19,008 nt of DNA, from contig CAZPUN010000046.1 in assembly GCA_964589775.1 (NCBI GenBank), positions 1-19,008 on the forward strand. Direction: 5' to 3'. The notes under the pieces were generated by a model that saw only the letters and a program-made list of their open reading frames with translations, made no database searches and had not been told where the DNA came from. Of this stretch, positions 1 to 17,216 are shown piece by piece. Within the stretch, counting starts at the first letter, position 1; each line of letters begins with the position of its first letter. The position numbers and the translations under genes were made by a program. Source of the DNA: an uncultured archaeon (lineage in GTDB: Archaea > Asgardarchaeota > Thorarchaeia > Thorarchaeales > CAZPUN01).

Positions 1-885
1 AAATGTGATAGGCGTTTTAGTAATTATAAGATCTATGTAATTATTTGTGGGAATTAAAAGTATGATGGCGGCGAATATTCCCAAAATAAAATTCATCAAA
101 GAGACCTGATTGGGTGTGATATTTGTTCTTGAAAGTACCGCTGTGAGCCTTCTGGAAATACGCCGATTGTATTCACCTACCAGTTCGCCCTCGATTTTTG
201 TTGTTTGCTTCAATAGCAATGATTTTGCCTTCTTAAAGGCTTCTTTACTTCTATTATGGCACCACAATGTACCGTCTACATCAAATGTATTGACCTTTAC
301 GTCCTTGAGTCCTTGTTTAATTAATTGATACATATCTTGTGCAGAATCCAATGATATTAATCGTTCAATTGTTTCTCTATCAAAGAACATAACATCTGTA
401 AATACGGATCCATTCTCTAATTGTGTGCCTATATCTTTTAATTCATTATTTTCCACGATAATTTTTGTTGCCTGTGTTGTATCGCAACCCTTGACTTTTG
501 AATCTATAAACAATGTAGTTTTTCCAGTCAATCCATTTTTAAAACCGCGATAATCTATCAAATGATCTCCAAAAGTTACAACTGCAGGCCATTTTGTGTG
601 TTTTAGTCCTTCAATTATAGGCGTTGCATCTTTTCCATTCTTTACTCGAACAATCTCCATGACAAATGTTGAGTCTAATTTTTTCTTTTGTATATATTCT
701 TCAAGTTTCGTATCCCCATCATTAATCACAATTATGAATCGTTTAATTCCTATTTGATGGAACCTATACATATGTCGCTCCAGTAATGATAACCCGTAGA
801 CTTTATGTAAATATGCTGGAGTATTCTTGTTGGACAAAACCTGATTTTCGGTAGTACATAAAATGACTGCTTGAATTTGCTCCAA
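1..885 (-). CDS. 5' part of an IPCT/DIPPS-like fusion: degenerate nucleotidyltransferase-like domain plus CDP-alcohol phosphotransferase (runs off the window edge; absent from the ORF track)
   Basis: Translated by hand: TTG at 885, 5 nt after a GGTGA RBS, open to position 1 (295 codons). Reads MEQIQAVILCTTENQVLSNKNTPAYLHKVYGLSLLERHMYRFHQIGIKRFIIVI...FGDHLID...QATKIIVENNELKDIG...DVDGTLW...KKAKSLLLKQTTKIEGELVGEYNRRISRRLTAVLSRTNITPNQVSLMNFILGIFAAIILLI. The segment NRxISxxLTxxL...ITPNQVS is typical of the start of the CDP-alcohol phosphotransferase domain. The DxxDGxxAR signature would lie outside the window. Confidence 0.85.
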   Translation of the reverse strand, partial: MEQIQAVILCTTENQVLSNKNTPAYLHKVYGLSLLERHMYRFHQIGIKRFIIVINDGDTKLEEYIQKKKLDSTFVMEIVRVKNGKDATPIIEGLKHTKWPAVVTFGDHLIDYRGFKNGLTGKTTLFIDSKVKGCDTTQATKIIVENNELKDIGTQLENGSVFTDVMFFDRETIERLISLDSAQDMYQLIKQGLKDVKVNTFDVDGTLWCHNRSKEAFKKAKSLLLKQTTKIEGELVGEYNRRISRRLTAVLSRTNITPNQVSLMNFILGIFAAIILLIPTNNYIDLIITKTPITF

Positions 886-920
886 CTATATCACCGCTTT
901 TATTTCAATATTTTTCAATT

Positions 921-1108
921 CTGAGATGTTCTCCGCGATGAGCTGCGGAGATTGTGAATATTAGACTACCCAAATATAGTCTTTCAGTGTATATACTCGC
1001 TATATTTTAGCGAGGGCTCTTAGTTACTGCTTCACAATCTTGAGGATTTTAGATGCGAAGAGAATAACCTAAATCCTCAGATTACTTGATTTGAGATACG
1101 TATACACT
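921..1108. ncRNA. Putative structured RNA element (leader or small ncRNA) of unknown family
   Basis: Six perfect helices in about 190 nt: 931-936/945-950, 949-958/1031-1040, 963-968/977-982, 986-993/1101-1108, 996-1002/1008-1014 and 1041-1049/1071-1079. Confidence 0.5.
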
Positions 1109-1121
1109 TTTATTAACTTTT
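1108..1121 (-). promoter_or_regulatory. Candidate BRE/TATA promoter for the IPCT/DIPPS-like gene
   Basis: The minus strand reads AAAAGTTAATAAA, a purine-rich BRE followed by a TATA-like box. This would put the transcription start near 1083. Confidence 0.35.
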
Positions 1122-1197
1122 AGGCAATTTGTCTTTGTTTTAAAGATATACTTTTTTGTTTTGTTCATATCCTGATTTCTGGCTGTTATTCATGCGG

Positions 1198-1216
1198 CAA
1201 AGACTTTTTAAAAAAA
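1198..1216 (+). promoter_or_regulatory. Candidate BRE/TATA promoter for the bcs1-like gene
   Basis: CAAAGACTTTTTAAAAAAA lies about 45 nt upstream of the TTG start, with a GGGG RBS-like element at 1244-1247. Confidence 0.35.
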
Positions 1217-1255
1217 TCCACTTTATTTGAATAAAAAAAGATTGGGGAACCGAAA

Positions 1256-2635
1256 TTGTCTGGAAAGAATGTAGCGATAATTCTGGCTGGTGGTTCTGGA
1301 GTTCGATTTGGTGCTGAAAAACCCAAACAGCTTGTCAAATTAGCCGGTAAGACTGTAATTGAGCATACAATTGAGAAATTTGAAAAACATCCTATGATCG
1401 ATAAAATCTATCTGGTTGTAAATCCCTCATATCGCGATTATATTGAGGAACTGATAAAGGGTAAATTTTCAAAAGTAAAGAAGGTTTTAAATGGCGGAAA
1501 GACACGGCAAGAATCTTCCAGCATTGGTATCATGGCATGTGAAGATGAGGATGAGAATGTGCTTGTACATGATGCAGTTCGTCCATTTGTTTCAGCGGAA
1601 ATCATATCTGAAATGGTCGAGCAGCTTAAAACTCATGTGGCTGTTGATGTAGCGATTCCAAGTCCAGATACAATAATCCAAATCAACGATGAACATTATA
1701 TTGTAGACATTCCACAAAGGAAGTATATGTGGCGAGGTCAAACGCCGCAAGGATTTAAAAAAGATATATTATTGAAGGCGCACAAGTTAGCCATTGAAAA
1801 CGGAATTGAAAATGCATCTGATGATTGTTCTCTGGTATTAAAATTAAATCTGGGCGATATTTTTGTTATTTCCGGTTCGAAGTTCAATATTAAAATAACA
1901 TATCCACTAGATATACACATTGCAGACAAGATCTTTCAGATTTATCAGATTAAGATTCCTGAGGTCTCTTCTGATGAGTTGAAAAAGTATTTCAGAGATA
2001 AGGTGGTAGTTGTTTTTGGTGGAACCAGTGGTATCGGTTTAGAAATATGTAATCTTACAAAATCCTATGGTTCCCGTGTTTATAGTTTGTCTCGTAGAGT
2101 TGGTGTAGATATTCGAAACTATGACAGCGTAAAAAAGGCATTAGATGAAATATATGAAAAAGAAAAGCGTATTGATGTTGTAGTGGTTAGCTCTGGAGTC
2201 TTAAAGCGAGCCTTTATTGAAAGTGCAGATATTGAGACTATCCGTGAACAAATTGAAACGAACCTAATGGGCAACATTCTAGTTGCGAAAGCATCAATTC
2301 CATATCTTAAGGAATCTCATGGTTCTATTACGTTCTTTGCGTCCAGCTCATATACTCGTGGTAGAATGGGCTATACACCCTATAGTTCATCAAAGGCTGC
2401 ATTGGTTAATTTCGTGCAAGGATTTTCTGATGAAGTTTCCGAGTACGGAATTTGTGCTAATGTTGTTTCTCCGGAGCGGACTGCAACACCTATGCGCGTT
2501 ATGAACTTTGGAAAGGAAGACCCCAACAAGTTATTGTCTCCTGAATTTGTCGCACTTGCAACATTAAAGACCATAGCGAGTCGAGTCACCGGTTCAGTGA
2601 TCAGTGTTACAGTTGCTGATGAAAAAGGAAGCTGA
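1256..2635 (+). CDS. bcs1: Bifunctional cytidylyltransferase / SDR reductase (Bcs1-type CDP-ribitol synthase: ribitol-5-P cytidylyltransferase plus ribulose-5-P reductase)
   Basis: The N-terminal domain has IspD/TarI motifs LAGGSGVRFG...PKQL, GGKTRQESS, VHDAVRPF, GQTPQGF, SDD and NIKITYPLD. The C-terminal SDR has FGGTSGIG, SSSYTRGR, the catalytic YSSSK and PERTATPMR. Architecture and motifs match Haemophilus Bcs1/Acs1. Confidence 0.88.
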   Translation: MSGKNVAIILAGGSGVRFGAEKPKQLVKLAGKTVIEHTIEKFEKHPMIDKIYLVVNPSYRDYIEELIKGKFSKVKKVLNGGKTRQESSSIGIMACEDEDENVLVHDAVRPFVSAEIISEMVEQLKTHVAVDVAIPSPDTIIQINDEHYIVDIPQRKYMWRGQTPQGFKKDILLKAHKLAIENGIENASDDCSLVLKLNLGDIFVISGSKFNIKITYPLDIHIADKIFQIYQIKIPEVSSDELKKYFRDKVVVVFGGTSGIGLEICNLTKSYGSRVYSLSRRVGVDIRNYDSVKKALDEIYEKEKRIDVVVVSSGVLKRAFIESADIETIREQIETNLMGNILVAKASIPYLKESHGSITFFASSSYTRGRMGYTPYSSSKAALVNFVQGFSDEVSEYGICANVVSPERTATPMRVMNFGKEDPNKLLSPEFVALATLKTIASRVTGSVISVTVADEKGS

Positions 2636-2639
2636 GAGT

Positions 2640-2914
2640 TTTACAAACGCTCTGCGAGAAAGTATCGCTTTAGAAAGCAGTGATAAACCGCATAAATGTT
2701 CATAAGTATATACATGATACTGAATCAACCAATTTGAGGATTTAGAATGGGCTGCGACTTGCATACAACATTGCATTCAAGGACGGCTTCAGAAAAACTG
2801 GAGCGCATTGTGGTCTCGTCGGGACATGGTGTGTATATGCGTGAAATGGCTATCGCTGTGTAATCTACACGCATAACCATTGCGTCTCAATGTGGAGAGT
2901 ATGTCTGACTCTCC
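2640..2914 (+). other. Structured intergenic element between convergent genes (possible ncRNA or small-ORF transcript)
   Basis: About 275 nt, visibly less AT-rich than other spacers. Stems include TATCGCT/AGTGATA, GCTTCAG/CTGGAGC, ATGGT..TATGCGTG/CACGCATA..ACCAT and GGAGAGT/ACTCTCC. G-U wobbles favour the + strand. Confidence 0.35.
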
Positions 2915-2922
2915 TATTTTCT
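2894..2922. terminator. Hairpin abutting the flippase stop codon, followed by a T-rich tract on +
   Basis: GGAGAGT-atgtctg-ACTCTCC (2894-2914), then TATTTTCT. Confidence 0.4.
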
Positions 2923-4419
2923 AATTAATAACTTTTTAATTAGCTTTATTATTGGGCTTGGTAAGAAACTTGTGGCTATCGATAATTCATGCTCTGATAC
3001 TACATTTGCAAATCTGCAATAGATCATATAGACTAAAGCACCTGCTACAAGGTCAATTAATAGTGCTATAATTCCTGAATATTGCTGATTTATGAAATAA
3101 ATTGGTATATACATTAAGATTGCGCCAAAGATTATTTTCACAATAGCTCGTGTATCCACGTATATATCTGGCAAGTATTTTCGACTGTAATAGACTAAAA
3201 TGAGATTACCTGTAATTTCTGAAGCGGCTAAAGCAAGTGCAATTCCTATTGGTCCAAATGGTACAAATAGAACGCCACATGCAATAGCAATAATTGTAGC
3301 TACAGCTGCTGAAATATAATATCTGTCGGTTCGTTTGATTGCTGCAAGCATACTGTTAAAAGGTCTCATCAAAAAGATTGGCAAAATTCGTATTGCCAGT
3401 ATTATAAAAATTGGAAGTGCAGCTTGATAATTTGGGCCAAATATTGAGAAAAATGGTTCGCTTACGAAGATCAGTCCCAGTGTGAGTGGTGCGAAAACAA
3501 ATGCCGATGATTTAATCGTCCAGCTTACTCCTTGGAGTTTTCCTTTTCCTCGTCCTAAGCTTTCTGAAAAGTATGGTGTAAGTGTTGCATAATATCCTAC
3601 GCCAAACGTCACAAGAAGATTTGCCTGTCTCATAGCAAACTCATATAAACCTAATGCACTAATTCCAAATGATGTGAATAGGAATACTCTAAGGAAGAAA
3701 TTCTGACTTAGAAATGCAAGTAGATAGGACGAAACTGTAGGGAACCCGAATAGCAGAAGTTCTTTTGTGGGATATCTATCACGCTGAATTTTAAGCGAAA
3801 TCGGTTCGAACATTGCCATGAATAATATACTTAGCAAGGCAGCAATGAGAAACTTGAGCAACAGCGCATTTATACCAAAACCTTGAATTAACAAGAATGC
3901 AGATACAATTTGGCCTGTAACGGTACCTCCGAGTGATGCAAGTCCGACTTTTTTCATATTCTGGAAGCCTTTCTCAATTCCGGACAATATATTAAATGAA
4001 AAAATAGCGATTATTGCGCCCGTATATATAAGCAAAGTATCCCAGCCAATTACTATGTTAAGCGAATCTAAAATGAAGAGTGTAATTCCCGGAATAAGTA
4101 TTATTGAAATTACAATAACTGAGATTAGAAACAATGTAACGCTAGCGATTATCCTAATCACTTCGTCTCTTTTTTCCTCGCCAATTGCATGTGCAATATA
4201 TCGTGTAGCGGCGCCGGGCATACCGAGTCCAATTATTGTCGGTATTCCGCCAATTAATGTGGCAAGGATCGAATACGTACCAAAATCACTTGTTGCGATA
4301 ACGTTAGAGATAATCACACTGATGATTAAACCCAGTATTAGAGATATAATGGGTTTTAACGATAGGTAAATGCTGTCTGCAATAACTTTTGTTTTCCTGT
4401 TTTTCGGTGAGTCTGGCAT
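2914..4419 (-). CDS. MOP-superfamily (Wzx/RfbX-like) oligosaccharide flippase
   Basis: 501 aa with roughly 12-14 hydrophobic segments. Motifs DFGTYS..., GLGMPGAATRYIA, LLLFGFP, ALGLYEFA and PFGPIGIALA. Glycan-cluster context supports the call. Confidence 0.88.
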   Translation of the reverse strand: MPDSPKNRKTKVIADSIYLSLKPIISLILGLIISVIISNVIATSDFGTYSILATLIGGIPTIIGLGMPGAATRYIAHAIGEEKRDEVIRIIASVTLFLISVIVISIILIPGITLFILDSLNIVIGWDTLLIYTGAIIAIFSFNILSGIEKGFQNMKKVGLASLGGTVTGQIVSAFLLIQGFGINALLLKFLIAALLSILFMAMFEPISLKIQRDRYPTKELLLFGFPTVSSYLLAFLSQNFFLRVFLFTSFGISALGLYEFAMRQANLLVTFGVGYYATLTPYFSESLGRGKGKLQGVSWTIKSSAFVFAPLTLGLIFVSEPFFSIFGPNYQAALPIFIILAIRILPIFLMRPFNSMLAAIKRTDRYYISAAVATIIAIACGVLFVPFGPIGIALALAASEITGNLILVYYSRKYLPDIYVDTRAIVKIIFGAILMYIPIYFINQQYSGIIALLIDLVAGALVYMIYCRFANVVSEHELSIATSFLPSPIIKLIKKLLIRK

Positions 4420-4628
4420 ATTCTCGTATTCCTATTTACTTGATTTGTAATTTTATTCTAAATAACTTCTATATAAAACTCTTCATAATATCTATTGATT
4501 GTTATCCCTTTACGTGCTTGGTGAATAATATTCAATTTTGATAATTAATAGATAACTTTTTCTTGTATTTATTCAATTGATAGGCACTAAGTTTTTATGA
4601 TATTCATTCGGATTATTTTCAGAATCTA

Positions 4629-5732
4629 ATGGGTGGTCAAAAATTGAGAATTACGATTGTAGACGAAATTGCAAATGTAGCGTTTCATTTATCCAAAGGT
4701 CTTTCTTCAAAGGGTCATCATGTGACGGCTGTGTTAGATATTGCACGAAAGCTTCCTCGTCTTCTGTTTGTGCATAAAAAACTACCGAATGTCGATGTAA
4801 AATGGATAAAGCCACTCCCAATTAAGCCGCGAGCCTTTGGGCTAGCTCTTCCAATGATACGCGCCATTATCAAGTCTCGTCCTCATGTGATTAATGTCCA
4901 GTATTTATGGAGTCAATTATTTATCTCATGGTTTGCTGCAAAGTTGCTTGGTGTTCCGATTATTGGAACAGGGCATGGTTGGGAAGTTCTTGATGTACCA
5001 AAGAGCCGAATTCGCGGTCGTATTCAGAGGTGGTTTCTGAATAGGCTCGATAGAATTATAGTTACTGCAGAATACTATAAAGAACACTTACCGGTTCCAA
5101 AAGAGAAAATGGTTTATATTCCACGTATGATCGATACGGACATGTTTCGTCCGGGTATTCCGTGTGATGATATTATAGAGAAATATGGAAACCATATTGT
5201 GACATTTATTGCACGTTTATATCCTATAAAAACGCCCTACAAAACCCTTGATGCATTTAGAAAAGCTCTTGATGTTGTTCCTGATGCCCATCTACTCATT
5301 CTTGGAGTAGGACCTGAGTATGAAGGTATGGTTAAGCACGTAAAAGAATTAGGCATGGAAGATCATGTACATTTTCTCGGTGAAGTGCCGAATACAGAGA
5401 TCCCTAGATACTTGAATGCATCAAAGGCCGAAGTTCGTGGTTTTAATCCTGAGACCCCTGAATTAGGTATTTCACATTTAGAGGCATTAGCATGTGGAAC
5501 CCCTGTATTAACCTATACCGACTATAAGGATATGGGCGGAGTTATTGTAGCATTAGAAGTTGATGATATTGCAAAGCACTTGATTCGAATTTTGACTGAT
5601 AAAGAATTTCATGATGAATTAGCGCGTCAAGGACGCGAATATGTTATGAAGAATTTTAGCATTGAAGCAGCAACACAAAAGACATTGGAAATATTCTACG
5701 AAGAACTTAAGAAAAGGAAGTCCAAAAAATGA
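4629..5732 (+). CDS. Glycosyltransferase family 4 (GT-B fold)
   Basis: LSKGLSSKGHHVTAV, GTGHG, IDTDMFRP, FIARLYPIK, LGVGP, VHFLGEVP and LEALACGTPV. Confidence 0.9.
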   Translation: MGGQKLRITIVDEIANVAFHLSKGLSSKGHHVTAVLDIARKLPRLLFVHKKLPNVDVKWIKPLPIKPRAFGLALPMIRAIIKSRPHVINVQYLWSQLFISWFAAKLLGVPIIGTGHGWEVLDVPKSRIRGRIQRWFLNRLDRIIVTAEYYKEHLPVPKEKMVYIPRMIDTDMFRPGIPCDDIIEKYGNHIVTFIARLYPIKTPYKTLDAFRKALDVVPDAHLLILGVGPEYEGMVKHVKELGMEDHVHFLGEVPNTEIPRYLNASKAEVRGFNPETPELGISHLEALACGTPVLTYTDYKDMGGVIVALEVDDIAKHLIRILTDKEFHDELARQGREYVMKNFSIEAATQKTLEIFYEELKKRKSKK

Positions 5733-6973
5733 AAGTACTGACAATTCTTGGTACTCGTCCAGAGATAATAAAATTGTACTCCTTAATCCACGAATTTGAG
5801 CGCAATAGCGAAGTGGAGCACATTCTAGTACATACCAGTCAGCATTATGATTTTAAAATGTCCCAGGTGTTTATGGAAGAGCTAAGAATTCCTACGCCTG
5901 ATTACTTTCTAAACATTCGATCAGGAACCCACGCGGTTCAGACTGCTCGCTTATTAGAATCTCTTGAAAAAGTATTAATGGAAACAGAACCTGATCTTGT
6001 AGTTGTTCTTGGTGATACTAATTCCACATTGGGCTCTGCACTGGTAGCGGCAAAGCTCAAAATACCTGTGGCACATATTGAAGCTGGCTGTCGCAGTTTT
6101 GATTTGACTATGCCCGAAGAAGTTAATCGTCTCGTCACTGATGCAATTTCTTCATTATTGTTTGCACCCACGGAAACCACAGCTCAAAATCTATATTTCG
6201 AAGGCCATCCGAGAGATCGTGTATTTATGTGTGGAAATACCATTGTTGATGTTGTCGAGGAAGTATTAAAGAATCATCGTAGCAATCGTCCTATGGATGA
6301 TGAATACATACTTCTGACAATGCATCGCGCTGAAAATGTTGATGACCCACAGAGGCTCAAGAGTATTCTTGAAGGCATAAAGCAGATAAATACCAAGGTA
6401 GTTTTTCCGGCACATCCGCGAACAATCAAGCGCATTAACGAGTTTGGCTTGAAATCGTTTGTTGACGACATTGATAATTTGGAGATTATTGAGCCTCTAG
6501 GCTATGTTTCATTTCTAAATTATATGATGCATTCAAAAATTGTTTTGACAGATAGCGGTGGTGTTCAAGAGGAAGTAATTTTACTGAACCGTCCCTGCTT
6601 AACCTTGCGGGATTCTACAGAATGGCCCGAAACCGTTTGGGCTGGTGGAAATATTCTTGTAGGCTGGGAAAGCAAGAAAATTTCAGAAACTGCAAATAAA
6701 CTATTAAACAACGAAGATGAATATGATAGAATGGCTAATGCTAAGAACCCATTCAAAGAAAATGCTGCGAAATGTATTTCTCAAAAGATCATCGAACGAT
6801 ATCACGCCCGTTCTCTTAGCCGCAAGAGAATCGACCTGAGATTTGCAAAATATCCCCTTCCACATTTGCATATTGGTGCTTCTGTAGAGCCTCAAAACGT
6901 ATCACTTAGTTTTGATTCAGATGGAAATTCCCTGCCTAAAGACATTGGCGAGTACAATATTTCGCGGGATTGA
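5729..6973 (+). CDS. wecB: UDP-N-acetylglucosamine 2-epimerase (non-hydrolysing)
   Basis: GTRPEIIKL, HTSQHYD, GDTNS, HIEAGCRS, PEEVNR, TMHRAEN, TDSGGVQEE and RDSTEWPE. The start overlaps the GT4 stop (ATGA). Confidence 0.95.
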   Translation: MKVLTILGTRPEIIKLYSLIHEFERNSEVEHILVHTSQHYDFKMSQVFMEELRIPTPDYFLNIRSGTHAVQTARLLESLEKVLMETEPDLVVVLGDTNSTLGSALVAAKLKIPVAHIEAGCRSFDLTMPEEVNRLVTDAISSLLFAPTETTAQNLYFEGHPRDRVFMCGNTIVDVVEEVLKNHRSNRPMDDEYILLTMHRAENVDDPQRLKSILEGIKQINTKVVFPAHPRTIKRINEFGLKSFVDDIDNLEIIEPLGYVSFLNYMMHSKIVLTDSGGVQEEVILLNRPCLTLRDSTEWPETVWAGGNILVGWESKKISETANKLLNNEDEYDRMANAKNPFKENAAKCISQKIIERYHARSLSRKRIDLRFAKYPLPHLHIGASVEPQNVSLSFDSDGNSLPKDIGEYNISRD

Positions 6974-7104
6974 TCTCCATTTATATTCAAGGCTGATGTC
7001 TTAGCCATTATTTTTTCTTCTCCAATAATCCTATAAATCAGTTTTCGTATATTTTTCTTAATTGGATTGGTTGAATAATTTTCTAGTATAACTATAAAAG
7101 GAAG

Positions 7105-7953
7105 ATGATTAAAATGGTGGGAATTCGAGAGCCTCATGTTGCCGGGCAATTCTATGCAGGTTCGCGTGAGAGTCTCATTAAGCAAGTTGAGTCAGCTTTT
7201 TTACATCGTCTCGGACCGCAGGAATTACCAAAAGGAGAACCGGGTTATGATAGAAAAATAAAATCTATTGTAAGTCCTCATGCCGGGTATATCTATTCGG
7301 GGCACATAGCAGCTCATGGGTATCTTGAGCTTTTTAAAGATGGAAAACCGGAACATATTGTTATTCTAGGTCCCAATCATACAGGAATTGGTGAAGGTGT
7401 GGCAATATCAAATCTTGCATGGCGCACACCATTAGGCATTGTAGAACCTGATTTTGAAATTATTGATTCATTAGCGGAGCATCACATATTTAGTATTGAT
7501 AATTCTGCACATGCATGGGAACATAGTATCGAAGTGCAATTGCCTTTTCTCCAATACATTTTTGGTGATTTTCAATTTACTGCGATATGCATTAAGAACA
7601 TTAATTTTGAAGTATGCTCACTTGTAGGCGAGGTTCTTGCAGATCTTTCGAAGGATAAGGATCTACTTGTAATTGCAAGTTCTGATTTCACTCATTTTGA
7701 ATCTGCAGATTCTGCACGTAAAAGAGATACGCCTGCAATTGATTTCATCACAAAGTTAGATGCTGCTGGCTTTCATTCATATGTTGTACAGAATAATGTT
7801 TCAATATGTGGGCTTGGTCCAATTACAGCTGCGATATCCTTCTCGAAATCTGCAGGTGCACAAAAAGGCACATTATTGAAGTATGCAAATTCTGGTGATG
7901 TGAGCGGCGATTTTGGTAATGTTGTAGCTTATGCTTCAATAAAAATAGAATAA
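7105..7953 (+). CDS. amrB: MEMO1 family protein (AmmeMemoRadiSam system protein B)
   Basis: REPHVAGQFY, SPHAGYIYSG, LGPNHTG, EHSIEVQLPFLQ, ASSDFTH, SICG and VVAYAS. The start may be ATG 7114. Confidence 0.95.
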   Translation: MIKMVGIREPHVAGQFYAGSRESLIKQVESAFLHRLGPQELPKGEPGYDRKIKSIVSPHAGYIYSGHIAAHGYLELFKDGKPEHIVILGPNHTGIGEGVAISNLAWRTPLGIVEPDFEIIDSLAEHHIFSIDNSAHAWEHSIEVQLPFLQYIFGDFQFTAICIKNINFEVCSLVGEVLADLSKDKDLLVIASSDFTHFESADSARKRDTPAIDFITKLDAAGFHSYVVQNNVSICGLGPITAAISFSKSAGAQKGTLLKYANSGDVSGDFGNVVAYASIKIE

Positions 7954-7969
7954 AAAAGAAGCAAAGGCA

Positions 7970-8605
7970 CTATTCGACATTTGCATGTCTTTGCTTCATA
8001 TCACTTTCTGTTATTTCTAGTTTCTCCATCATGAGTGTCACTATGCTCTCAAGCAGTATCAGTGTAGTATCCTCAAATAGGGATCCCATAGGCGGTACTG
8101 GATGTCCAGCGCCAATTAGTCGTAATTCGCTCCAATCTAAGTTGGTTTCTTCTGATTCTTTATTCTTGACCTTAATTATTATAGATACATCAACGTATTT
8201 CATCAATGGGCTATCCGGATTTGTAGTAATTGCTAAGGTTTTCGCACCAATTCGCTTTGCGACTTCTGCTGCATTAACTGTGGATTTTGTTCTTCCACTT
8301 CCAGAAATTAGAATTATTGCATCATTTGAGCGTAGTGGTGGTGTGGTCGTACGACCGACAACATGTACTTCAAATCCGAGGTGCAACAGTCGCATAATGA
8401 ACGTTTCGCCAATTAATCTACTGCGTCCTTGTGCTGCAAGAAATATTCTGCCATCTCGGACTTTCGTCATGATTATCTCATCAATAAATTGTAAAACTGC
8501 GTCATCATCAACTTCATTAATGGCAAGCTCGATCATTTTTAGGATATCTTTTCCAAACAGCTTAACTGAAGGGAGCTCTTTTCTTTTATTATTTTTTTGA
8601 GTCAT
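7970..8605 (-). CDS. hxlB: 6-phospho-3-hexuloisomerase (SIS domain)
   Basis: GRS...F.MRL.HLG, ISGSGRT, PMGSLFE and a C-terminal RHANVE. Confidence 0.88.
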   Translation of the reverse strand: MTQKNNKRKELPSVKLFGKDILKMIELAINEVDDDAVLQFIDEIIMTKVRDGRIFLAAQGRSRLIGETFIMRLLHLGFEVHVVGRTTTPPLRSNDAIILISGSGRTKSTVNAAEVAKRIGAKTLAITTNPDSPLMKYVDVSIIIKVKNKESEETNLDWSELRLIGAGHPVPPMGSLFEDTTLILLESIVTLMMEKLEITESDMKQRHANVE

Positions 8606-8725
8606 ATGAGCGTCATTCCTTTACGACTGGCTTTCATTTTTTTTACTACTGTAAAGAATTTTAAATTTTTGCTTTCTCTATTATATTATTTCATGGATTT
8701 TTTGTTTCATAATTGATCGTAAGGT

Positions 8726-9463
8726 TTAGAATTCCCTTTCTTCGATCTTTTTTCTTCTTAAAATGTCTGGAAGAATTCTGTGTAAGATGTAGAGAAAGAT
8801 TGTCGGTAGGATAAATGAAATTGCTACAATAAGCATTTTCAAATTTTCCGGAACGTATTGTGAAGGGAGCATTGCTGAAATATAGTAAAAAGCCACAATT
8901 ACTGCGGAGATAGCATCTGGTGCGATATTATAAAAGGCTCCTGCTAATGCGCATAACACTCCAAATATTAGAAGCTTGCGTGATAATATGTTGGTTTGGC
9001 TGATCGTGATTTCTGTAAATTCAACATCTTCCTTGGGGATCGTATCAAAGTGAGCTGTCAAATATCTAATGAACCTAAAAGAGTCTAGTTGTTCTGAATT
9101 TTTAAATATGAATAGAAAACTAATTACTACTAATAGCAATGGCCAACCGATTGATTCAAATGCAATTAGAAAAACGAAAACAATTACGAATGCAATAATA
9201 ACCATGAGAATTCCCATCAGAGGTCCGGAAATTATACTACGGTCGTCTGCGAAGCTTCGCATTTTTTTACGGAGATGAAATTTTGATTCCTCAGTGAGGT
9301 TTTGTGAAATCCATTTTCCACTAATGTTATTTTCTTCTCCTTCAATTGGGAGTTCTCTCACACGTTTGATAAGTCCCTTTTGATAAACTGAGATTAGAAT
9401 TAGAAATAATCCAAATATTGTTATGAATATCTGAGATGCAACTGCGATTTCAGGACTTATCAA
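8726..9463 (-). CDS. Hypothetical multi-pass membrane protein (about 5-6 TM)
   Basis: Alternating hydrophobic and soluble segments. The ORF extends to 9565, but TTG at 9463 after a GGGTG RBS is more plausible because it leaves room for the divergent promoters shared with tyrS. Confidence 0.7.
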   Translation of the reverse strand: MISPEIAVASQIFITIFGLFLILISVYQKGLIKRVRELPIEGEENNISGKWISQNLTEESKFHLRKKMRSFADDRSIISGPLMGILMVIIAFVIVFVFLIAFESIGWPLLLVVISFLFIFKNSEQLDSFRFIRYLTAHFDTIPKEDVEFTEITISQTNILSRKLLIFGVLCALAGAFYNIAPDAISAVIVAFYYISAMLPSQYVPENLKMLIVAISFILPTIFLYILHRILPDILRRKKIEEREF

Positions 9464-9574
9464 ATTTAACACCCACTGGATATCAAAAGAGATGAGTTTA
9501 TATTCGTTATTGAAACGGTAATGTATAGTTTTATTGTTATATTTATTGAACAGCGCAATCATCAATAAAAAAGT

Positions 9575-10723
9575 GTGAGTACAATGGATGTTGAAAGTAG
9601 ATTAAAACTAATTAAGCGACTACCAACTGAGGAAATCTTGGTGGAAGACGAACTTGTTCAGATGCTTGAAACGGGAGTTCCTATCAAACATTATATCGGA
9701 TTTGAAATTTCTGGCTTGGTTCATATAGGTTCTGGACTTGTATGCACATCAAAAATAGCAGATTTTCAAAAGGCTGGCGTGGATGTTGAGATCTTCCTTG
9801 CTGATTGGCACGCGTGGATCAATAACAAATTAGGTGGCGATCTTGAGTTCATAAATGAAGTTGGGCATCTCTACTTTAAACAAATGCTTCTTGCTGGTTT
9901 GAAATCGATGGGTGGAGACCCTGATAAGGTTCGCGTGGTTTATGGTACTGAACTTTATCACAATAATGATGAATATTGGCAGATTATGATTGATGTTGCA
10001 AAGAATATGACTCTTGCGCGTGCAAAGCGTTCGATCACAATTCTTGGGCGTCAATCTGCAGAAGAAGGTATCCCTCTTGCACATTTGATTTATCCCGCAA
10101 TGCAAGTTGCAGATATTTATTCGCAGCGAGTAAATCTTGCGCATGCTGGTACGGACCAACGAAAGGCACATGTAGTTGCACGTGACGTAGGTAAGAAGCT
10201 CAAATATAATCCTCTTGAATGGAATGGGGAGAAGCATAAACCAGTCGCGATTCACCATCATGTTGTACTTGGTCTTCAACAGCCTGCAGTATGGCCAATT
10301 CCTCCAGACATGGACCGAAAAGAGCTCATGGCAAGTAATAAAATGAGCAAATCAATTCCCGGTTCCGCAATTTTCATACATGATCCACCTGAGGTTATTC
10401 GAAAGAAAATCCGAAAAGGTTTCTGTCCTGCGAAAATCACTGATTATAATCCTGTTCTTGATTGGGCTAAGCATATTATATTCCGTGGAGGAGAAGTTGA
10501 GCTTAATATTTCACGCCCTGCAAAGTTCGGCGGTGATATTACATACTATCGTTATGAAGATCTCGAGAAAGATTTTGCAGAGGGTAAGTTACATCCGATG
10601 GATCTTAAGAACGGTATTGCAGAAAAGCTCATAGAAATTCTGGAGCCTGCTAGAAAGATTTTTGAGTCTGATAGGAAAATTCAAGAAATAGCCGAACGAA
10701 TCAGTAAGTCTATAACGCGATAG
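9575..10723 (+). CDS. tyrS: Tyrosine--tRNA ligase, archaeal/eukaryotic type
   Basis: YIGFEISG..HIGS (HIGH motif), LADWHAWINNK, IYPAMQVADI, GTDQRKAH, KMSKS and LHPMDLK. The start may be ATG 9584. Confidence 0.97.
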   Translation: MSTMDVESRLKLIKRLPTEEILVEDELVQMLETGVPIKHYIGFEISGLVHIGSGLVCTSKIADFQKAGVDVEIFLADWHAWINNKLGGDLEFINEVGHLYFKQMLLAGLKSMGGDPDKVRVVYGTELYHNNDEYWQIMIDVAKNMTLARAKRSITILGRQSAEEGIPLAHLIYPAMQVADIYSQRVNLAHAGTDQRKAHVVARDVGKKLKYNPLEWNGEKHKPVAIHHHVVLGLQQPAVWPIPPDMDRKELMASNKMSKSIPGSAIFIHDPPEVIRKKIRKGFCPAKITDYNPVLDWAKHIIFRGGEVELNISRPAKFGGDITYYRYEDLEKDFAEGKLHPMDLKNGIAEKLIEILEPARKIFESDRKIQEIAERISKSITR

Positions 10724-10742
10724 GCATCAAGCTGGTGATCAT

Positions 10743-11285
10743 TTGCTAATGCGGGAGCACAGATTCAAAACAAAAGATGGTCGCGATATTTTAGTAAGAC
10801 CTGCTGAAATCCGAGATGCTCCCGCACTTAATAAAATATATGCGGATACAATTGCTGAACGTAAGTATCTTCCTGAACTTTTTGTATCTCTTTCTCTTGA
10901 CGAATGGCGTGAATGGTTAGCAAAGGTAAATCAGAATCGAGAGGTCATATTGGTTGCTGAGGTGGATAAACAAGTCGTAGGACATGTTTCTTTGCAACCC
11001 GAGGAATGGCAAACCTCACAACATGTCTGTATTCTTGGAATTATCGTTAAGAAAGGATTCAGAAATATTGGTATTGGAAAAGCGTTGATCCTTGCAGCTA
11101 TTGATGCGGCCTTAATTGTTGGATACAAAAAGATAACTCTCAGTGTTTTCGCAAATAATTCGCGAGCAATTGCATTATATAAAAAAATTGGATTTGAGCA
11201 GGTTGGATGCCGTAGGAAACAATTCTACATGAATCATGAATATATCGATGAGGTTTTGATGGAATTGTTTATTGCGCCTCTTTAG
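10743..11285 (+). CDS. GNAT family N-acetyltransferase
   Basis: Acetyl-CoA motif FRNIGIGKAL, plus LSVFANNSRAIALYKKIGF and YIDEVLM. A GGTGA RBS precedes the TTG start. Confidence 0.9.
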   Translation: MLMREHRFKTKDGRDILVRPAEIRDAPALNKIYADTIAERKYLPELFVSLSLDEWREWLAKVNQNREVILVAEVDKQVVGHVSLQPEEWQTSQHVCILGIIVKKGFRNIGIGKALILAAIDAALIVGYKKITLSVFANNSRAIALYKKIGFEQVGCRRKQFYMNHEYIDEVLMELFIAPL

Positions 11286-11287
11286 AT

Positions 11288-13297
11288 TCAGACCCAGTAG
11301 CCTTCAAAAAATTCGTCTAGTGCATGAGTGATCACGTTAAAGTTTGTGCCCGGGTTGATAATTGCGAGGCGTTCTCGAAGCCATGGGCTTATTCTTGCGA
11401 TATTTCTGGATGCTTGATATCGTGTATCTAGAAGAATTCCTACTGCGAAATCTTTTTTATGTCTCCAGACTCTACCGAGAGCTTGATTTAATGCGCTGAA
11501 TGCTTGGTCCATATACCACTCATTTCCAAGTCCCCGTTTCTTATTTTCGAAGTAGTTTATCTGAGCGACTATTCGTGGATCTGTTATGTTCGGATATGGT
11601 AAGCCAACAATAATTACTGCACGTCCGAGTCTATCTGGGAAATTTTGCCCCTCACTAATCGTGCCTCTGGAGACTGCGAACAGAACTGCTTGCCCCTTTT
11701 CTGCTTTTTCTTTAAACTCCATTAGATATTTAATATCCTTTTTTGCTTGTTCTACATAAGTTGGAACATTAAATGCATCGAGAATTTTCTCATCGCTCCA
11801 GATTCTCAAAAACTTCCACATTAAGTCATAACTTGGGAAAAATACTAGTGTTCCAAAGGGAATGTGCTCTATCAAATGTTGAATTGTTCTTCCATATTCT
11901 TTGATTATTTCCATATTCTCTCTGAATTCGAATTTTGTGCTTAGTGGGACTCTATTGGGGCCTTCAGCTATCGATAATAATAGAATATTTTCGCGTGGTA
12001 TTACTGTTGGATATGCTTTGGTCATGGGTTTATATGCTCCAAGTCGTGTTGCGGTAGATTCTAACGGGCTTAAAGTTCCGCTAGTAATTATGATACTTTG
12101 TGGTCCTGAGCCAAGTAATCTGTTAAAACCTAAGCGTGGATCTAAGCACCGCCATTCCAGAATTTTGAGCGAATCAATTGACCTCCATATTCCTGAATAA
12201 TATTTCTCGTCGGTGTGCAACAATGCATTAAAGAACATATAGATTTTAAAGATGGCAGTTTGTTCAAGTAGAATTGCTTTCTGTTTCTTTTCAACAAGTA
12301 ATCTATGAATTTCTACAATATCGTACCATGCGCCTCCTAGTCTTTCAATATCCGGCATGGTCATGTCGAAATTTCCAAGTTCCTCTAAAATTTCTTTTCT
12401 ATCCAAAATTTGGCCATCTTCGAAGTGAACGTCATCGAAAAAGTTTTCGAGTTTTACCAGAGCTGAGTAAATCTCAGTCAAATGTGGATTTTTTACTTCT
12501 CTAATCTCGGAAATGGCTGTTGTAACATCAATTCGGTCCATCTGGAAACTCAATTCATCCTGGAAGAAATTCTCAATGTTGTGACCTTCATCCAAAACAA
12601 TAATTTGTCCTTTATATTGATCATTTCCAGTTAATAGATAGTTATAGGCACTGATCACAACATCATATTCCTTTGCAAGTAGTCTCGCAAGGTAGTATGG
12701 ACAAAATCCGTTTTCTTCGCCATATCTTCGTAACTCATCTGGTCCTGCAACTATAGGTACATCTTCTGGAATTGTTTGTGGAATTCTGATTCTTTGTCCT
12801 TCAAAATCACACCATAGACTTTCTGCGGGTAGTCGTTCGAACATATCTCCTGCAGTAAAACCTTCTACTTTTCGTAATTCAACCAATCTACGTCCATCGT
12901 ATTTTCGCCTTATATTACTCAAACAGATTTCAGCACCCTTTGTATATGTGGCTGCTCGGACATCTTTTCTTAGGCACAAAATCTCTCTGGAGCCTCTCAC
13001 TACCGCACGTATGTTATGCCCGTGCTCATTAATCTTTTTAATCTCTTCGATGATCTGTCTCATCTGATTGTGTGTTCTTGTGAAATAAAAAATCCTTTTC
13101 CCACTACCTAACGTTGCAGACAATATCGCAAGTGTTTTGCCGAATCCTGTGGGTGCTTCAGATAGAAAGACCTTTTCATTTTCTATTGCTTTTTCTATAT
13201 CTTTCATAAATTCTTCCTGTATTGTATATGGTTCATAAGGAAAATATTTCATATATTTGTTCGTGCTCATTTGTATCCCTGAAATCCTTTGCTTCAA
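11288..13297 (-). CDS. xpd: XPD/Rad3-family Fe-S 5'-3' DNA helicase
   Basis: Q motif FPYEPYTIQ, Walker A APTGFGKT, RTHNQ, four Fe-S Cys (LC, IC, WC, CPYY), LDEGHN, TSGTLSP, VFFPSY, VGLPYP and NQALGRVWRH. The real start is probably ATG 13270. Confidence 0.93.
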   Translation of the reverse strand: MKQRISGIQMSTNKYMKYFPYEPYTIQEEFMKDIEKAIENEKVFLSEAPTGFGKTLAILSATLGSGKRIFYFTRTHNQMRQIIEEIKKINEHGHNIRAVVRGSREILCLRKDVRAATYTKGAEICLSNIRRKYDGRRLVELRKVEGFTAGDMFERLPAESLWCDFEGQRIRIPQTIPEDVPIVAGPDELRRYGEENGFCPYYLARLLAKEYDVVISAYNYLLTGNDQYKGQIIVLDEGHNIENFFQDELSFQMDRIDVTTAISEIREVKNPHLTEIYSALVKLENFFDDVHFEDGQILDRKEILEELGNFDMTMPDIERLGGAWYDIVEIHRLLVEKKQKAILLEQTAIFKIYMFFNALLHTDEKYYSGIWRSIDSLKILEWRCLDPRLGFNRLLGSGPQSIIITSGTLSPLESTATRLGAYKPMTKAYPTVIPRENILLLSIAEGPNRVPLSTKFEFRENMEIIKEYGRTIQHLIEHIPFGTLVFFPSYDLMWKFLRIWSDEKILDAFNVPTYVEQAKKDIKYLMEFKEKAEKGQAVLFAVSRGTISEGQNFPDRLGRAVIIVGLPYPNITDPRIVAQINYFENKKRGLGNEWYMDQAFSALNQALGRVWRHKKDFAVGILLDTRYQASRNIARISPWLRERLAIINPGTNFNVITHALDEFFEGYWV

Positions 13298-13393
13298 TGA
13301 TATTTTTTTAGCGATCCTATTTTAAGTAAACCATAATTATTTTATTAAATTTTAATTTATATTTACTAGTAAAAATTGAAAAAATTCGGAGAA

Positions 13394-13714
13394 CTAATAG
13401 AAGAAGATATCGATAATAACTTCCAATACGAATAACAATCCTGATAATATGATATATTTTACACCTTGTGAATATTTCTCTGTGGGTAATGATTCGCCTC
13501 TATGTTCTTTCTTGAGCTCTCCAGATAGGATGCATCCACCAAAAATAAGGAACAGACCTATTTCTGCGAACATGAATAAATCCAAGAGACTAATAGGATT
13601 TGCTCCTGTACCCAAGCTTATAATTGTACTTGCAACAACATTGATTAATAGAAGAACTCCAATATACAAAAACATATCTTCTATTAGATCGAATACTTTT
13701 TCTTTGTTTTTCAT
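13394..13714 (-). CDS. Small hypothetical membrane protein (3 TM; DUF3899-like layout)
   Basis: 106 aa with three hydrophobic helices and a GGTG RBS upstream. The family assignment is tentative. Confidence 0.7.
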   Translation of the reverse strand: MKNKEKVFDLIEDMFLYIGVLLLINVVASTIISLGTGANPISLLDLFMFAEIGLFLIFGGCILSGELKKEHRGESLPTEKYSQGVKYIILSGLLFVLEVIIDIFFY

Positions 13715-13905
13715 GAATTAAACACCGTTTTAAGGAATTTATGCAGTTATTCTATCAGATATATTTAAGATTTTCCAGATGGCAAATAAGATTAACTTTT
13801 TCATCTTTGCAATAGAATTTATTCTTGTTTAGTTTAAATCCCGCATAATCTAAAAATCCGTAAGCTACTAAATCTCATGTACTGTCCTCTTTTAAAAAAT
13901 TAAAT

Positions 13906-14115
13906 TTATAAAATTGCGAACAATATTGTTATTGCAAACATGACGAGGAGCATAACTACAATTGGCAAGAATATTGTTTCTAAGCTTGCGATGAATATCG
14001 CTATATAATCTTTACCTTCTAATTTTACTGGCTTTTTCTTTTCTTCGGGATTTTGTTCTTCCAGATACCATAGTGGATCTCTTTCATGGTCTGAATCTGT
14101 CATATCATTCACCAC
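13906..14115 (-). CDS. Small membrane protein downstream of the peptide ABC operon
   Basis: Acidic N-terminus followed by a hydrophobic C-terminus (LEGKDYIAIFIASLETIFLP...). The likely start is ATG 14103, after GGTGA. Confidence 0.7.
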   Translation of the reverse strand: MVNDMTDSDHERDPLWYLEEQNPEEKKKPVKLEGKDYIAIFIASLETIFLPIVVMLLVMFAITILFAIL

Positions 14116-14134
14116 TTCAAAACGAGTTTATTTT

Positions 14135-14174
14135 TTAATATAAATAAAATTGTAGGTTAGGGATTTTCCCTAAC
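14135..14174 (-). terminator. Hairpin terminator or 3' stabiliser after oppF
   Basis: 8-bp stem GTTAGGGA/TCCCTAAC (14156-14174) starting 2 nt after the stop codon, followed by TTTTATTT on the minus strand. Confidence 0.6.
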
Positions 14175-14176
14175 TT

Positions 14177-15142
14177 TTAATCAAACAAGTGACAGGCAAC
14201 AAAATGTCCGCCGCCAATATCCTTGAGCTCTGGTTCTTCTTCTCTACAAATCGGCATAGCCTCTGGGCAACGTGGATGAAATCTGCAACCTTTCGGTGGA
14301 TTTACTGGACTTGGGACTTCACCTTTTAGAACACCTAGTTTGCCTTTGAATTTGGGATCTGGAATTGGAACAGCTTTGATAAGGGCTTTTGTGTATGGAT
14401 GAGCGGCTTCTTCGAATATGTCGTGTGGTGATAATTCTACAAGTTTTCCGAGATACATGACACCGATTCTATCGCTTACGTGCTTTATAACTGATAGATT
14501 GTGTGAAATGAATAAGTATGTGAGTTTGAATTCTTCCTGTAAGTCCTTTAGCAAGTTCAAAATCTGAGCTTGAACTGACACATCTAATGATGCTGTTGGT
14601 TCGTCTAACACAACGAATTCTGGTTTCAGTGCTAAAGCACGGGCAATAACGATTCTTTGTCTCTGGCCTCCACTAAATTCATGTGGGAATCTGTTCAAGT
14701 GGTCTTCGTTCAAACCGACTTTCTGCAAAAGTTCTAGTACCATATCTCTCATTTTGCGTCCTTTTGCAATTCCATTAATGACTAATGGTTCTCCGACTGC
14801 ATTTTTAATAGTAGTTCTTGGGTCTAGTGAAGCAAATGGGTCTTGAAATACCATCTGCATTTTAGTTCTAAGATGGCGTAAATCTTTGCCCTTTAATTTA
14901 GTGATATCCTTTCCATTGAATTTAATTTTGCCTGATGTTGGTTCGATTAATCTAAGCAAGAGTCTTCCGGTGGTTGTCTTTCCACAACCTGATTCTCCTA
15001 CAAGTCCGACTGTTTCACCCTTGTAGATTTTAAAGCTCACATCATCAACTGCATGAACATATCCAATTACTTTTCGGAATACTCCTCCGGTCAATGGGAA
15101 GTATTTCTTTAAATGTTCAACTTCAAGCAATGGTTCTGCCAT
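14177..15142 (-). CDS. oppF: Oligo/dipeptide ABC transporter ATP-binding subunit
   Basis: GESGCGKTT, FSGGQRQR, LDEPT, AHPYT and the C-terminal Cys motif GCRFHPRC..C..C. Confidence 0.95.
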   Translation of the reverse strand: MAEPLLEVEHLKKYFPLTGGVFRKVIGYVHAVDDVSFKIYKGETVGLVGESGCGKTTTGRLLLRLIEPTSGKIKFNGKDITKLKGKDLRHLRTKMQMVFQDPFASLDPRTTIKNAVGEPLVINGIAKGRKMRDMVLELLQKVGLNEDHLNRFPHEFSGGQRQRIVIARALALKPEFVVLDEPTASLDVSVQAQILNLLKDLQEEFKLTYLFISHNLSVIKHVSDRIGVMYLGKLVELSPHDIFEEAAHPYTKALIKAVPIPDPKFKGKLGVLKGEVPSPVNPPKGCRFHPRCPEAMPICREEEPELKDIGGGHFVACHLFD

Positions 15143-15143
15143 T

Positions 15144-16280: not shown

Positions 16281-16284
16281 TTTT

Positions 16285-17205
16285 TTACCTCCTCAATCTT
16301 GGATCCATGATGTCTCTCATTCCGTCGCCCATGAGGTTAAATGCAAGTACTGCAAAGAATATCGCAAGTCCCGGGAACAGAACCTCCCACGGATACTGTA
16401 AGAAGTATTGTTGTCCTGCTGCAATCATCCAACCCCACTCAGGAGCTCCTGCTTCTGCACCAAATCCGATAAAGCTAAGACCTGCTGCAGTAAGCAATAC
16501 ACCACCTAAGTCCATTGTAGCTGCAACAATAAGTGGTTGAATTGAGTTTGGAATTATGTGCTTAAAGATGATTCTAAGGTCACTTGCACCGACTGAACGT
16601 GCGGCTTCAACATATAGTTTTTCACGCTCTGCAAGTGCTTGAGCACGAATAAGTCGAGTATATCCTGGCCACCACACAAACATAAGGGCAAACATGATAT
16701 TTTGTAATGACCTACCTATGACTGTAACAATTGCCATAGCAAGAATCAATCCGGGAAATGCAAAGAATATATCTGTGATACGCATGATTAATTCATCATA
16801 TTTTCCGCCAAGATATCCTGATGAGGCACCTAAGATCGTTCCAAATGTTGCTGTTACGAGAACGACTATCAAAGCCATACCAAAGTCTACTCTAGTACCC
16901 CAGATAACTCTGCTAAATATGTCCATTCCATAATTATCTGTACCAAACAGATGTCCATTTGTTAATGGGGGTAGGTTTCTGTTTGATAGGTCTATTAATT
17001 CGGGATCGTAAGGTGCAATCCATGGTGCAAATATCGCTATGAACACATAAAATAAGGTGATAACAATACCTGTGATAACTAATGGGTTTTGCTTTAGCAA
17101 GTGCAACGAATATTTGAACTCTTTAATATGAGGCTTGAGGTCCTCTTTCCACAATTCGAATCGTGAAAATTCTTGTTCTTCATTAGCTTGTATTTGTTCT
17201 GTCAA
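16285..17205 (-). CDS. oppC: Oligo/dipeptide ABC transporter permease
   Basis: HLFGTDNYGMDIFSR, EAA loop YVEAARSVGA, LSFIGFG..PEWG and GDGMRDIMDPR. TTG start after GGAGGAG. Confidence 0.95.
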   Translation of the reverse strand: MTEQIQANEEQEFSRFELWKEDLKPHIKEFKYSLHLLKQNPLVITGIVITLFYVFIAIFAPWIAPYDPELIDLSNRNLPPLTNGHLFGTDNYGMDIFSRVIWGTRVDFGMALIVVLVTATFGTILGASSGYLGGKYDELIMRITDIFFAFPGLILAMAIVTVIGRSLQNIMFALMFVWWPGYTRLIRAQALAEREKLYVEAARSVGASDLRIIFKHIIPNSIQPLIVAATMDLGGVLLTAAGLSFIGFGAEAGAPEWGWMIAAGQQYFLQYPWEVLFPGLAIFFAVLAFNLMGDGMRDIMDPRLRR

Positions 17206-17216
17206 TTTAACTCCTC

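Follow-up and report, generated by a model that had tools for sequence, protein, structure and literature searches.

The window analysed here is the whole of contig CAZPUN010000046.1 (positions 1-19008; hereafter C46) of an uncultured Asgard archaeon of the order Thorarchaeales, the genome of which comprises 2.16 Mb in 64 contigs and is 96.75% complete. At the left end of the window, as had been proposed from the sequence alone, a gene for a Bcs1-type fusion of a cytidylyltransferase with an SDR reductase (the Bcs1-like gene) lies head-to-head with a gene of IPCT/DIPPS architecture, in which a nucleotidyltransferase-like domain precedes a membrane CDP-alcohol phosphotransferase (CDP-AP), and family models match both. 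The same pair is present in one related genome (hereafter the sister genome), and the remainder of the CDP-AP gene lies on a second contig, C2. The genes and features of the locus, in order across the two contigs, are as follows.

C2:8421-9707, plus strand: 428-aa multi-span membrane protein, convergent with the CDP-AP gene
C2:9729-10319, minus strand: CDP-AP, remaining 196 codons, at the contig end, with a 4-nt overlap with C46
1..885, minus strand: CDP-AP, first 295 codons of 491, running off the contig start; TTG start at 885
886..1255, no strand: divergent spacer of 370 nt between the CDP-AP and Bcs1-like genes
1256..2635, plus strand: Bcs1-type bifunctional enzyme of 459 aa, an IspD-family cytidylyltransferase joined to an SDR reductase
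2914..4419, minus strand: Wzx-like polysaccharide flippase (Polysacc_synt), convergent with the Bcs1-like gene; kept in the sister locus
4629..5732, plus strand: GT4 glycosyltransferase, its 3' end overlapping the WecB start; kept in the sister locus
5729..6973, plus strand: WecB, non-hydrolysing UDP-GlcNAc 2-epimerase (TIGR00236, 399.8 bits, cut-off 210)

When the genome was searched in all six frames for PF01066, two genes were detected, one of which is located at the extreme end of C2 and reads on the minus strand, the end of the contig truncating its N-terminus. This fragment begins with FVIAGILTYFFNVIDGSDGELARLKFMASEQGALIDSVYDRF, a perfect D-x2-DG-x2-AR-x8-G-x3-D-x3-D signature, and the catalytic motif that the sequence-only reading had expected in the missing C-terminus is thereby found complete. 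C2 ends with AAAT and C46 starts with AAAT, and joining the contigs over this 4-nt overlap yields a single uninterrupted frame of 491 codons. The sister protein, with 75% identity, is continuous across the junction (...PITFVIAGILTYFFNVIDGSDGELARLKFMASEQGALIDSVYDRF...) and is encoded on a 20.7-kb contig that carries, in one piece, the genes for the thermosome, Rpb6, MgtC, histidyl-tRNA synthetase (HisRS), a 430-aa membrane protein, CDP-AP, the Bcs1-like enzyme, Wzx, GT4 and WecB, that is, the gene order of C2 followed by that of C46. In three independent assemblies (the metagenome-assembled genome (MAG), ENA contig k141_174572 and Logan SRR8542060), a contig ends within ~20 nt of the same point of the CDP-AP gene; because the two public assemblies among them are interrupted there just like the MAG, the break reflects the data and not a particular assembler. 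The shared break point suggests strain-level variation that begins there, a conserved left flank giving way to a variable glycan island on the right. At the other end of the gene, the TTG start codon and the GGTGAT Shine-Dalgarno sequence are both conserved in the sister genome, and the first 38 codons differ from their sister counterparts mostly by synonymous changes (pN 0.045 versus pS 0.53; dN/dS ~0.05). Because these codons are conserved, the TTG start with its Shine-Dalgarno sequence is genuine and the annotated start of the sister gene too short.

The 491-aa protein is a member of the class-I CDP-APs (PF01066), because the signature, the Pfam match and the predicted fold all agree on this assignment. 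All eight signature residues are kept in the joined protein (residues 309-334, DGSDGELAR-LKFMASEQ-GALIDSVYD), and the C-terminal fragment matches PF01066 with 25.4 bits (cut-off 22; 27.3 bits in the genome search). The AlphaFold2 (AF2) model of the full-length sister (pLDDT 86, pTM 0.86), in which the Rossmann-like fold of the N domain is kept as well, contains long helices at residues 258-277, 293-318, 324-361, 382-408, 439-451 and 455-490. Foldseek searches with this model placed the IPCT/DIPPS structure 4mnd (E 8e-23) and AF2299 (E 7e-14) at the top, followed by stand-alone IPCTs, with a probability of 1.00 for 4mnd and 4o6m. In sequence comparisons, the full-length sister matches 4mnd with an E-value of 2.7e-26 and 22% identity, and the N-terminal 295 aa of the window protein, which alone have no Pfam match, do so with an E-value of 5e-15; the membrane domain matches AF2299 with an E-value of 1e-19, versus 6e-3 for phosphatidylinositol-phosphate (PIP) synthase. 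The protein is outside the bifunctional IPCT/DIPPS equivalog, because the active site of the nucleotidyltransferase is lost (see below) and because the Thermococcales IPCT/DIPPS model NF041135, aligned over model positions 2-272, gives 119.5 bits against a cut-off of 580, a score that refers to the N-terminal 295 aa only. The genome has just one further PF01066 gene, C64:23027-23716; its product is an AIPS-like CDP-AP of 229 aa, and a gene for a PfkB-type sugar kinase comes next.

Residues 1 to ~225 of the CDP-AP comprise the decayed nucleotidyltransferase domain, which is followed by a juxtamembrane helix and the first transmembrane (TM) helix. That this cytidylyltransferase domain is dead had been surmised from the translation, and an alignment of 84 sequences (83 homologues and the sister protein) supports this: G12, G14, R16, K24, G55, N86, G87, S89, K154, G164, D210 and D212, in columns that are 81-99% conserved, are all replaced in the CDP-AP lineage. 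Six of the changes, G12T, G14N, R16V, K24A, D210H and D212R, affect positions with 86-93% conservation among the 83 homologues, and conservation in the family reaches 89-93% in the columns of the Gly-rich loop, Arg16 and Lys24, where the lineage reads CTTENQV..TPA. The GxGxR loop, the PK lysine, the NG.S motif (86-89) and the WxDxD aspartates D210/D212 are thus lost, and the G-x-G-x-R, PK lysine and metal-binding aspartates of an active nucleotidyltransferase site are not found; GDH, ATK, W208 and R37 are retained. The domain is still similar to the IPCT structure 2xme (E 6e-6). Because its dN/dS in the two-genome comparison is ~0.19, the domain is apparently not junk, and it seems to be non-catalytic and yet under purifying selection; in the membrane half, pN is 0.06 and synonymous sites are saturated. 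Similar motif decay is seen in ~24 of the 150 best homologues, with other neighbours, and has arisen repeatedly in the family of nucleotidyltransferase and CDP-AP fusions.

The architecture of the protein is closest to that of AF2299 of Archaeoglobus fulgidus (PDB 4o6m/4o6n/4q7c), which likewise combines a cytidylyltransferase-like N domain of the inactive type, without the catalytic motifs, with a six-TM class-I CDP-AP. The motif regions of AF2299 and the window CDP-AP are near-identical (ARLKFMESKYGAWLDGVLDRY versus ARLKFMASEQGALIDSVYDRF). The differences from AF2299 are that, in the window protein, the N domain has remained recognisably IPCT-like (119 bits with NF041135), whereas the AF2299 N domain scores only 2 bits (no match) against the active nucleotidyltransferase profile; that the loops between TM3 and TM4 and between TM4 and TM5 are longer; that, where TM5 starts, RGLL has replaced the RDxR motif (family conservation 95/96/78%), which is TRDFR in AF2299; and that a dedicated, predicted CDP-ribitol synthase is encoded next door. 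Bifunctional IPCT/DIPPS (AF0263, PDB 4mnd; NF041135) has the same two-domain architecture, is the best match in both sequence and fold, and shares the CDP-AP signature and the juxtamembrane NRxxS motif. Unlike the window protein, it has an active IPCT half that makes its own CDP-inositol, retains the TM5 motif (KRDER in AfDIPPS) and is found in the context of inositol-1-phosphate synthase rather than in a glycan locus. AF2299 was solved with bound CDP-glycerol, and the donor pocket is small and hydrophilic in both AF2299 and DIPPS, in contrast to the lipid groove of PIP synthase (PMC4634129; PMC8633023).

The Bcs1-like protein, to judge from its two domains, has the architecture of Bcs1/Acs1 of Haemophilus influenzae, a fusion of an IspD-type cytidylyltransferase and an SDR reductase. 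It matches PF01128 (IspD) with 186 bits over residues 6-227, TIGR00453 with 204 bits (above the cut-off of 181) and PF00106 (adh_short) with 102 bits over residues 283-415, the SDR reductase part comprising residues 245-459. Direct reading of the translation shows that the cytidylyltransferase loop (GGSGVRFG..KPKQL) is intact and that the GGTSGIG and YSSSK motifs of the reductase match the TGxxxGxG and YxxxK patterns of the SDR superfamily. The sister orthologue is 89% identical, and there are thousands of homologues at 50-61% identity, some of which are labelled ribitol-5-phosphate dehydrogenase/cytidylyltransferase (JGI/NCBI). The differences from the Haemophilus enzyme are the archaeal host and a score slightly below the cut-off of the ribitol-5-phosphate cytidylyltransferase model NF001183 (163.1 bits versus 166). 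Bcs1 of H. influenzae converts ribulose-5-phosphate to CDP-ribitol (bioRxiv 10.64898/2026.07.27.741123), and the predicted reaction of the archaeal enzyme is the formation of CDP-ribitol from ribulose-5-phosphate, NADPH and CTP.

Two classes of enzymes are known to use CDP-ribitol, namely, the TagF/TarL type (PF04464) and the LicD/fukutin type (PF04991) (bioRxiv 10.64898/2026.02.12.704994). A six-frame search of the 96.75%-complete genome found no match to PF04464 or PF04991. Nor does the genome contain a second IspD-family gene or a TagD gene (best score 43.9 bits versus a cut-off of 165). Because the Bcs1-like gene is the sole IspD-family gene and TagD is missing, its predicted product would be the only soluble CDP-alcohol identifiable in this genome. 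Eight Bcs1-like loci from other organisms were surveyed, and in six of these a TagF-like gene is immediately adjacent: in an ENA contig, Thermococcus profundus, a second Thermococcales genome (27 bp away), a Promethearchaeota MAG and two bacteria. One of the remaining two loci has no TagF-like gene within 8 kb, and the other is truncated where its contig stops. The adjacent TagF-like gene is the sole PF04464 gene in each of the three archaeal genomes, and none of the eight loci has a PF01066 neighbour. In the window, the CDP-AP gene occupies the place that is held elsewhere by the TagF-like gene, beside a Bcs1-like gene and together with Wzx and glycosyltransferases, which is circumstantial evidence for a non-orthologous displacement of a TagF-type enzyme. 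The reaction predicted for the CDP-AP is that of TagF/TarL/TarK, namely, transfer of ribitol-phosphate from CDP-ribitol to a glycan or lipid-linked acceptor with release of CMP, although the TagF-type fold is unrelated, being peripheral, GT-B-like and devoid of DxxDGxxAR, whereas the window CDP-AP belongs to an integral six-TM, metal-dependent class. The sequence-only reading held that the donor-making step had been handed over to the neighbouring gene. The absence of TagF, LicD and TagD and the adjacency of TagF-like genes in six of eight loci speak for this hand-off; the restriction of the association to two genomes, the precedent of AF2299 and the ~24 of 150 decayed homologues limit it, and we rate the chances that CDP-ribitol is the donor of the CDP-AP as about even.

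Both partners are rare. A word-indexed search of 5.8 billion protein clusters for more members of the CDP-AP lineage retrieved only the sister (75%) and two distant fusions, and an exhaustive HMMER search of 1.84 billion representatives gave 1,782 homologues at E <=0.001, with one 50% cluster below E 1e-30, the best-scoring homologues being nucleotidyltransferase and CDP-AP fusions of ~430-490 aa with 25-33% identity. Neither an orthologue of the CDP-AP nor the Bcs1-like fusion is present in 40 genomes of the same order. Elsewhere in the phylum, the Bcs1-like gene was found in one of 399 other Asgard genomes, where it is TagF-linked, and in the Thermococcales it is present in two of 99; this sporadic distribution argues for horizontal acquisition. 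A pattern scan of genome contigs with the Bcs1-like protein yielded two full-length loci. Within the clade, the CDP-AP lineage is as rare as the Bcs1-like gene and is seen only together with it. The conserved linkage that the earlier reading called for is seen in the sole available relative, where the pair is kept, and not in the two decayed homologues with contexts that were checked, which lack a cytidylyltransferase neighbour.

The block common to both genomes consists of six genes, for the 428-aa multi-span protein, CDP-AP, the Bcs1-like enzyme, Wzx, GT4 and WecB, the order of which is kept in spite of the saturation of synonymous sites; synteny stops just past WecB. WecB is a supplier of UDP-ManNAc. 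The 428-aa protein has no Pfam or NCBIfam match, and its sole homologue in 5.8 billion clusters is that of the sister (69% identity). An ESM Atlas model of this protein aligns over ~400 residues, with TM-scores of 0.75-0.84, to the PMT/PMT_2, ArnT and STT3 clusters. These are GT-C enzymes, so the modelled fold makes it possible that the protein is a GT-C enzyme, too. Such a neighbourhood is what would be expected of a lipid-linked surface glycan to which ribitol-phosphate is added on the cytoplasmic side and which is then flipped and processed outside the cell. The arginine of the RxxR motif in PIP synthase binds the acceptor phosphate, and we infer, from position rather than from structural superposition, that the TM5 RDxR motif is the equivalent. 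The sequence-only reading had offered three products, a compatible solute, a lipid head group and a lipid-linked donor for glycan decoration; with Wzx, GT4, WecB and possibly a GT-C enzyme as neighbours and with the RDxR motif lost, the context favours glycan decoration, and the solute is disfavoured.

In the favoured reading, the pair would constitute a two-step ribitol-phosphate module within a surface-glycan locus. In the first step, as suggested by family membership, the Bcs1-like enzyme would reduce ribulose-5-phosphate to ribitol-5-phosphate and, with CTP, convert it to CDP-ribitol. In the second step, which the context suggests, the CDP-AP would take CDP-ribitol into a small, cytoplasm-facing donor pocket like that of its AF2299/DIPPS-type relatives and, using the intact metal and catalytic site DxxDGxxAR..G..D..D, transfer ribitol-phosphate to an acceptor hydroxyl, releasing CMP. 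Having lost the Gly-rich loop, Arg16, Lys24 and the second-metal aspartates, the N domain would be unable to make a CDP-alcohol and presumably covers the active site as a cap or scaffold, as in AF2299. The likeliest acceptor would be a lipid-linked (dolichyl-phosphate-anchored) oligosaccharide that GT4 builds with WecB-derived ManNAc; the adjacent Wzx would then flip the decorated product, which the GT-C-like protein would handle outside the cell. The CDP-AP would thus be a functional substitute for the TagF/TarL-type ribitol-phosphotransferase found with Bcs1-like genes in other archaea and bacteria. We assign a probability of about 0.45 to the reading in which CDP-ribitol is the donor and a ribitol-phosphate glycan decoration is the product. 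The protein may, with a probability slightly short of even, be the first class-I (PF01066) CDP-AP to use CDP-ribitol, replacing a TagF/LicD-type enzyme and building a teichoic-acid-like or ribitol-phosphate-decorated Asgard surface glycan.

Several observations count against this proposal. The halves of the CDP-AP gene sit on different contigs, and the lineage is found in two genomes only, so that the conserved linkage amounts to a single comparison. Two other homologues with decayed N domains adjoin unrelated genes, a PLD-like gene and inositol-1-phosphate synthase, respectively, and motif loss alone therefore does not imply that the donor comes from a neighbour; neither of these two nor the closest intact homologue has a cytidylyltransferase neighbour. 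Given its score relative to the NF001183 cut-off, the Bcs1-like enzyme could make CDP-arabinitol or another CDP-alditol, and D-arabinitol-5-phosphate is also accepted by TarI (bioRxiv 10.64898/2026.07.27.741123). The GT-C status of the 428-aa protein is not supported by Pfam (E 10), by the PMT_2 search of the genome or by hhalign against the PMT_2 protein of the same genome, and AF2 with a two-sequence alignment (pLDDT 40) gives no GT-C support either. Finally, the six-TM form of CDP-APs is associated with soluble acceptors (PMC4634129), and therefore a solute fits this feature at least as well as a lipid-linked glycan.

In such a solute pathway, CDP-ribitol would be condensed with a soluble polyol-phosphate (inositol-1-phosphate, glycerol-3-phosphate or ribitol-5-phosphate) to give, after dephosphorylation, a ribitol-phosphodiester solute analogous to di-myo-inositol phosphate (DIP), glycero-phospho-inositol (GPI) or diglycerol phosphate (DGP). 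Along with the six TM helices, the architecture and structure, for which DIPPS and AF2299 are the best matches, and the presence of an inositol-1-phosphate synthase gene in the genome are compatible with this scheme, which we nevertheless consider quite improbable given that RGLL replaces the TM5 motif present in both of these enzymes, that the pair is surrounded by a flippase, glycosyltransferases and an epimerase, with no phosphatase or inositol-1-phosphate synthase there, and that Bcs1-like genes elsewhere sit in polysaccharide loci. The number of helices bears in the opposite direction on a synthase of lipid head groups or carriers, which would transfer ribitol-phosphate from CDP-ribitol to archaeol or dolichol, yielding a ribitol-phosphate lipid, or, with the Bcs1-like gene present by coincidence or as a polyol supplier, use CDP-archaeol as the donor for a soluble alcohol: lipid-acceptor CDP-APs typically have three or four extra TM helices (PMC4634129), and six are modelled here. 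Moreover, the membrane domain is far nearer to those of AF2299 and DIPPS, proteins that bind or use soluble CDP-alcohols, than to the PIP synthases that use CDP-diacylglycerol, and the intact cytidylyltransferase half of the Bcs1-like enzyme would be pointless if ribitol-5-phosphate sufficed. Such a lipid enzyme thus appears improbable, even though the genome encodes a single other PF01066 protein (the AIPS-like one), few for an archaeon, and the adjacent GT-C-like protein would suit a lipid-phosphate-linked donor used outside the cell.

The two genes also might not be coupled at all, an AF2299-like enzyme of unrelated function lying beside a horizontally acquired glycan island and CDP-ribitol being used by an unrecognised transferase elsewhere. 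The linkage in no more than two related genomes, the sporadic occurrence of the Bcs1-like gene (one of 399, none of 40 and two of 99 in the genome sets above), which is typical of mobile glycan islands, and the breaks of several assemblies inside the CDP-AP gene, as at a possible island boundary, would all be accounted for in this way. We regard the lack of coupling as unlikely, considering that the CDP-AP lineage is equally rare in the clade and occurs solely with the Bcs1-like gene, that the genes diverge across one common spacer, and that neither an alternative consumer of CDP-ribitol nor an alternative soluble CDP-alcohol donor for the CDP-AP was detected in the genome.

If the ribitol-phosphate module is real, it would have several implications. 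Two folds are known to carry out ribitol-phosphate transfer, namely, the TagF/TarL type and the LicD/fukutin type, and FKTN and FKRP, the human dystroglycanopathy enzymes, belong to the second of these. The class-I CDP-AP would be a third, independent fold for this transfer, and the donor range would be widened for a family that is best known for phospholipid and DIP synthesis. The orphan AF2299-type proteins would gain a testable model in which a cytidylyltransferase encoded next door provides the donor in trans. Little is known about the Asgard cell surface, where teichoic-acid-like chemistry would be implied, and ribitol-phosphate glycans would be in evidence in Asgard archaea for the first time. 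In the literature searched, no class-I CDP-AP is reported to use CDP-ribitol, in line with the earlier statement that no characterised enzyme of this kind was known, and no report of ribitol in Asgard archaea was found. Both genes are small enough to be expressed, and a simple assay would do, either CMP release or liquid chromatography-mass spectrometry of the products. We attach no significance for eukaryogenesis to the co-occurrence of an ISPD-like enzyme and a PMT-like protein.

Some additional features of the two loci deserve mention. The window encodes a 6-phospho-3-hexuloisomerase (7970-8605, minus strand; TIGR03127, 165 bits, cut-off 160), 5 kb from the Bcs1-like gene. In archaea, this is an enzyme of the ribulose monophosphate pathway that leads to ribulose-5-phosphate; because the gene is outside the block common with the sister genome, it is probably a housekeeping one. 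The region 8726-9565 of the window was considered as a conserved extra member of the cluster and rejected, given that it has no similarity to the gene at the matching sister position. In the sister locus, a nucleotidyltransferase/HEPN toxin-antitoxin pair (3715-4436), absent from the window, is inserted between GT4 and Wzx. The spacer between the CDP-AP and Bcs1-like genes is ~190 nt longer in the window than in the sister genome. Rfam gave no match in the spacer, and promoter and terminator scans were empty as well. At ~1040-1125, the spacer contains a hairpin, TGAGGATTT..AAATCCTCA, followed by a conserved AT-rich stretch, ..CTAAATCCTCAA-ATTACTTGATTTAT-TATATGTATACACTTTTATTAACTTTTAGG.., and this element, which is absent from the shorter sister spacer, has at least nine further copies on other contigs of the same genome, with 77-85% identity. 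It could be similar to a miniature inverted-repeat transposable element (MITE), or else a shared promoter or a small-RNA module.

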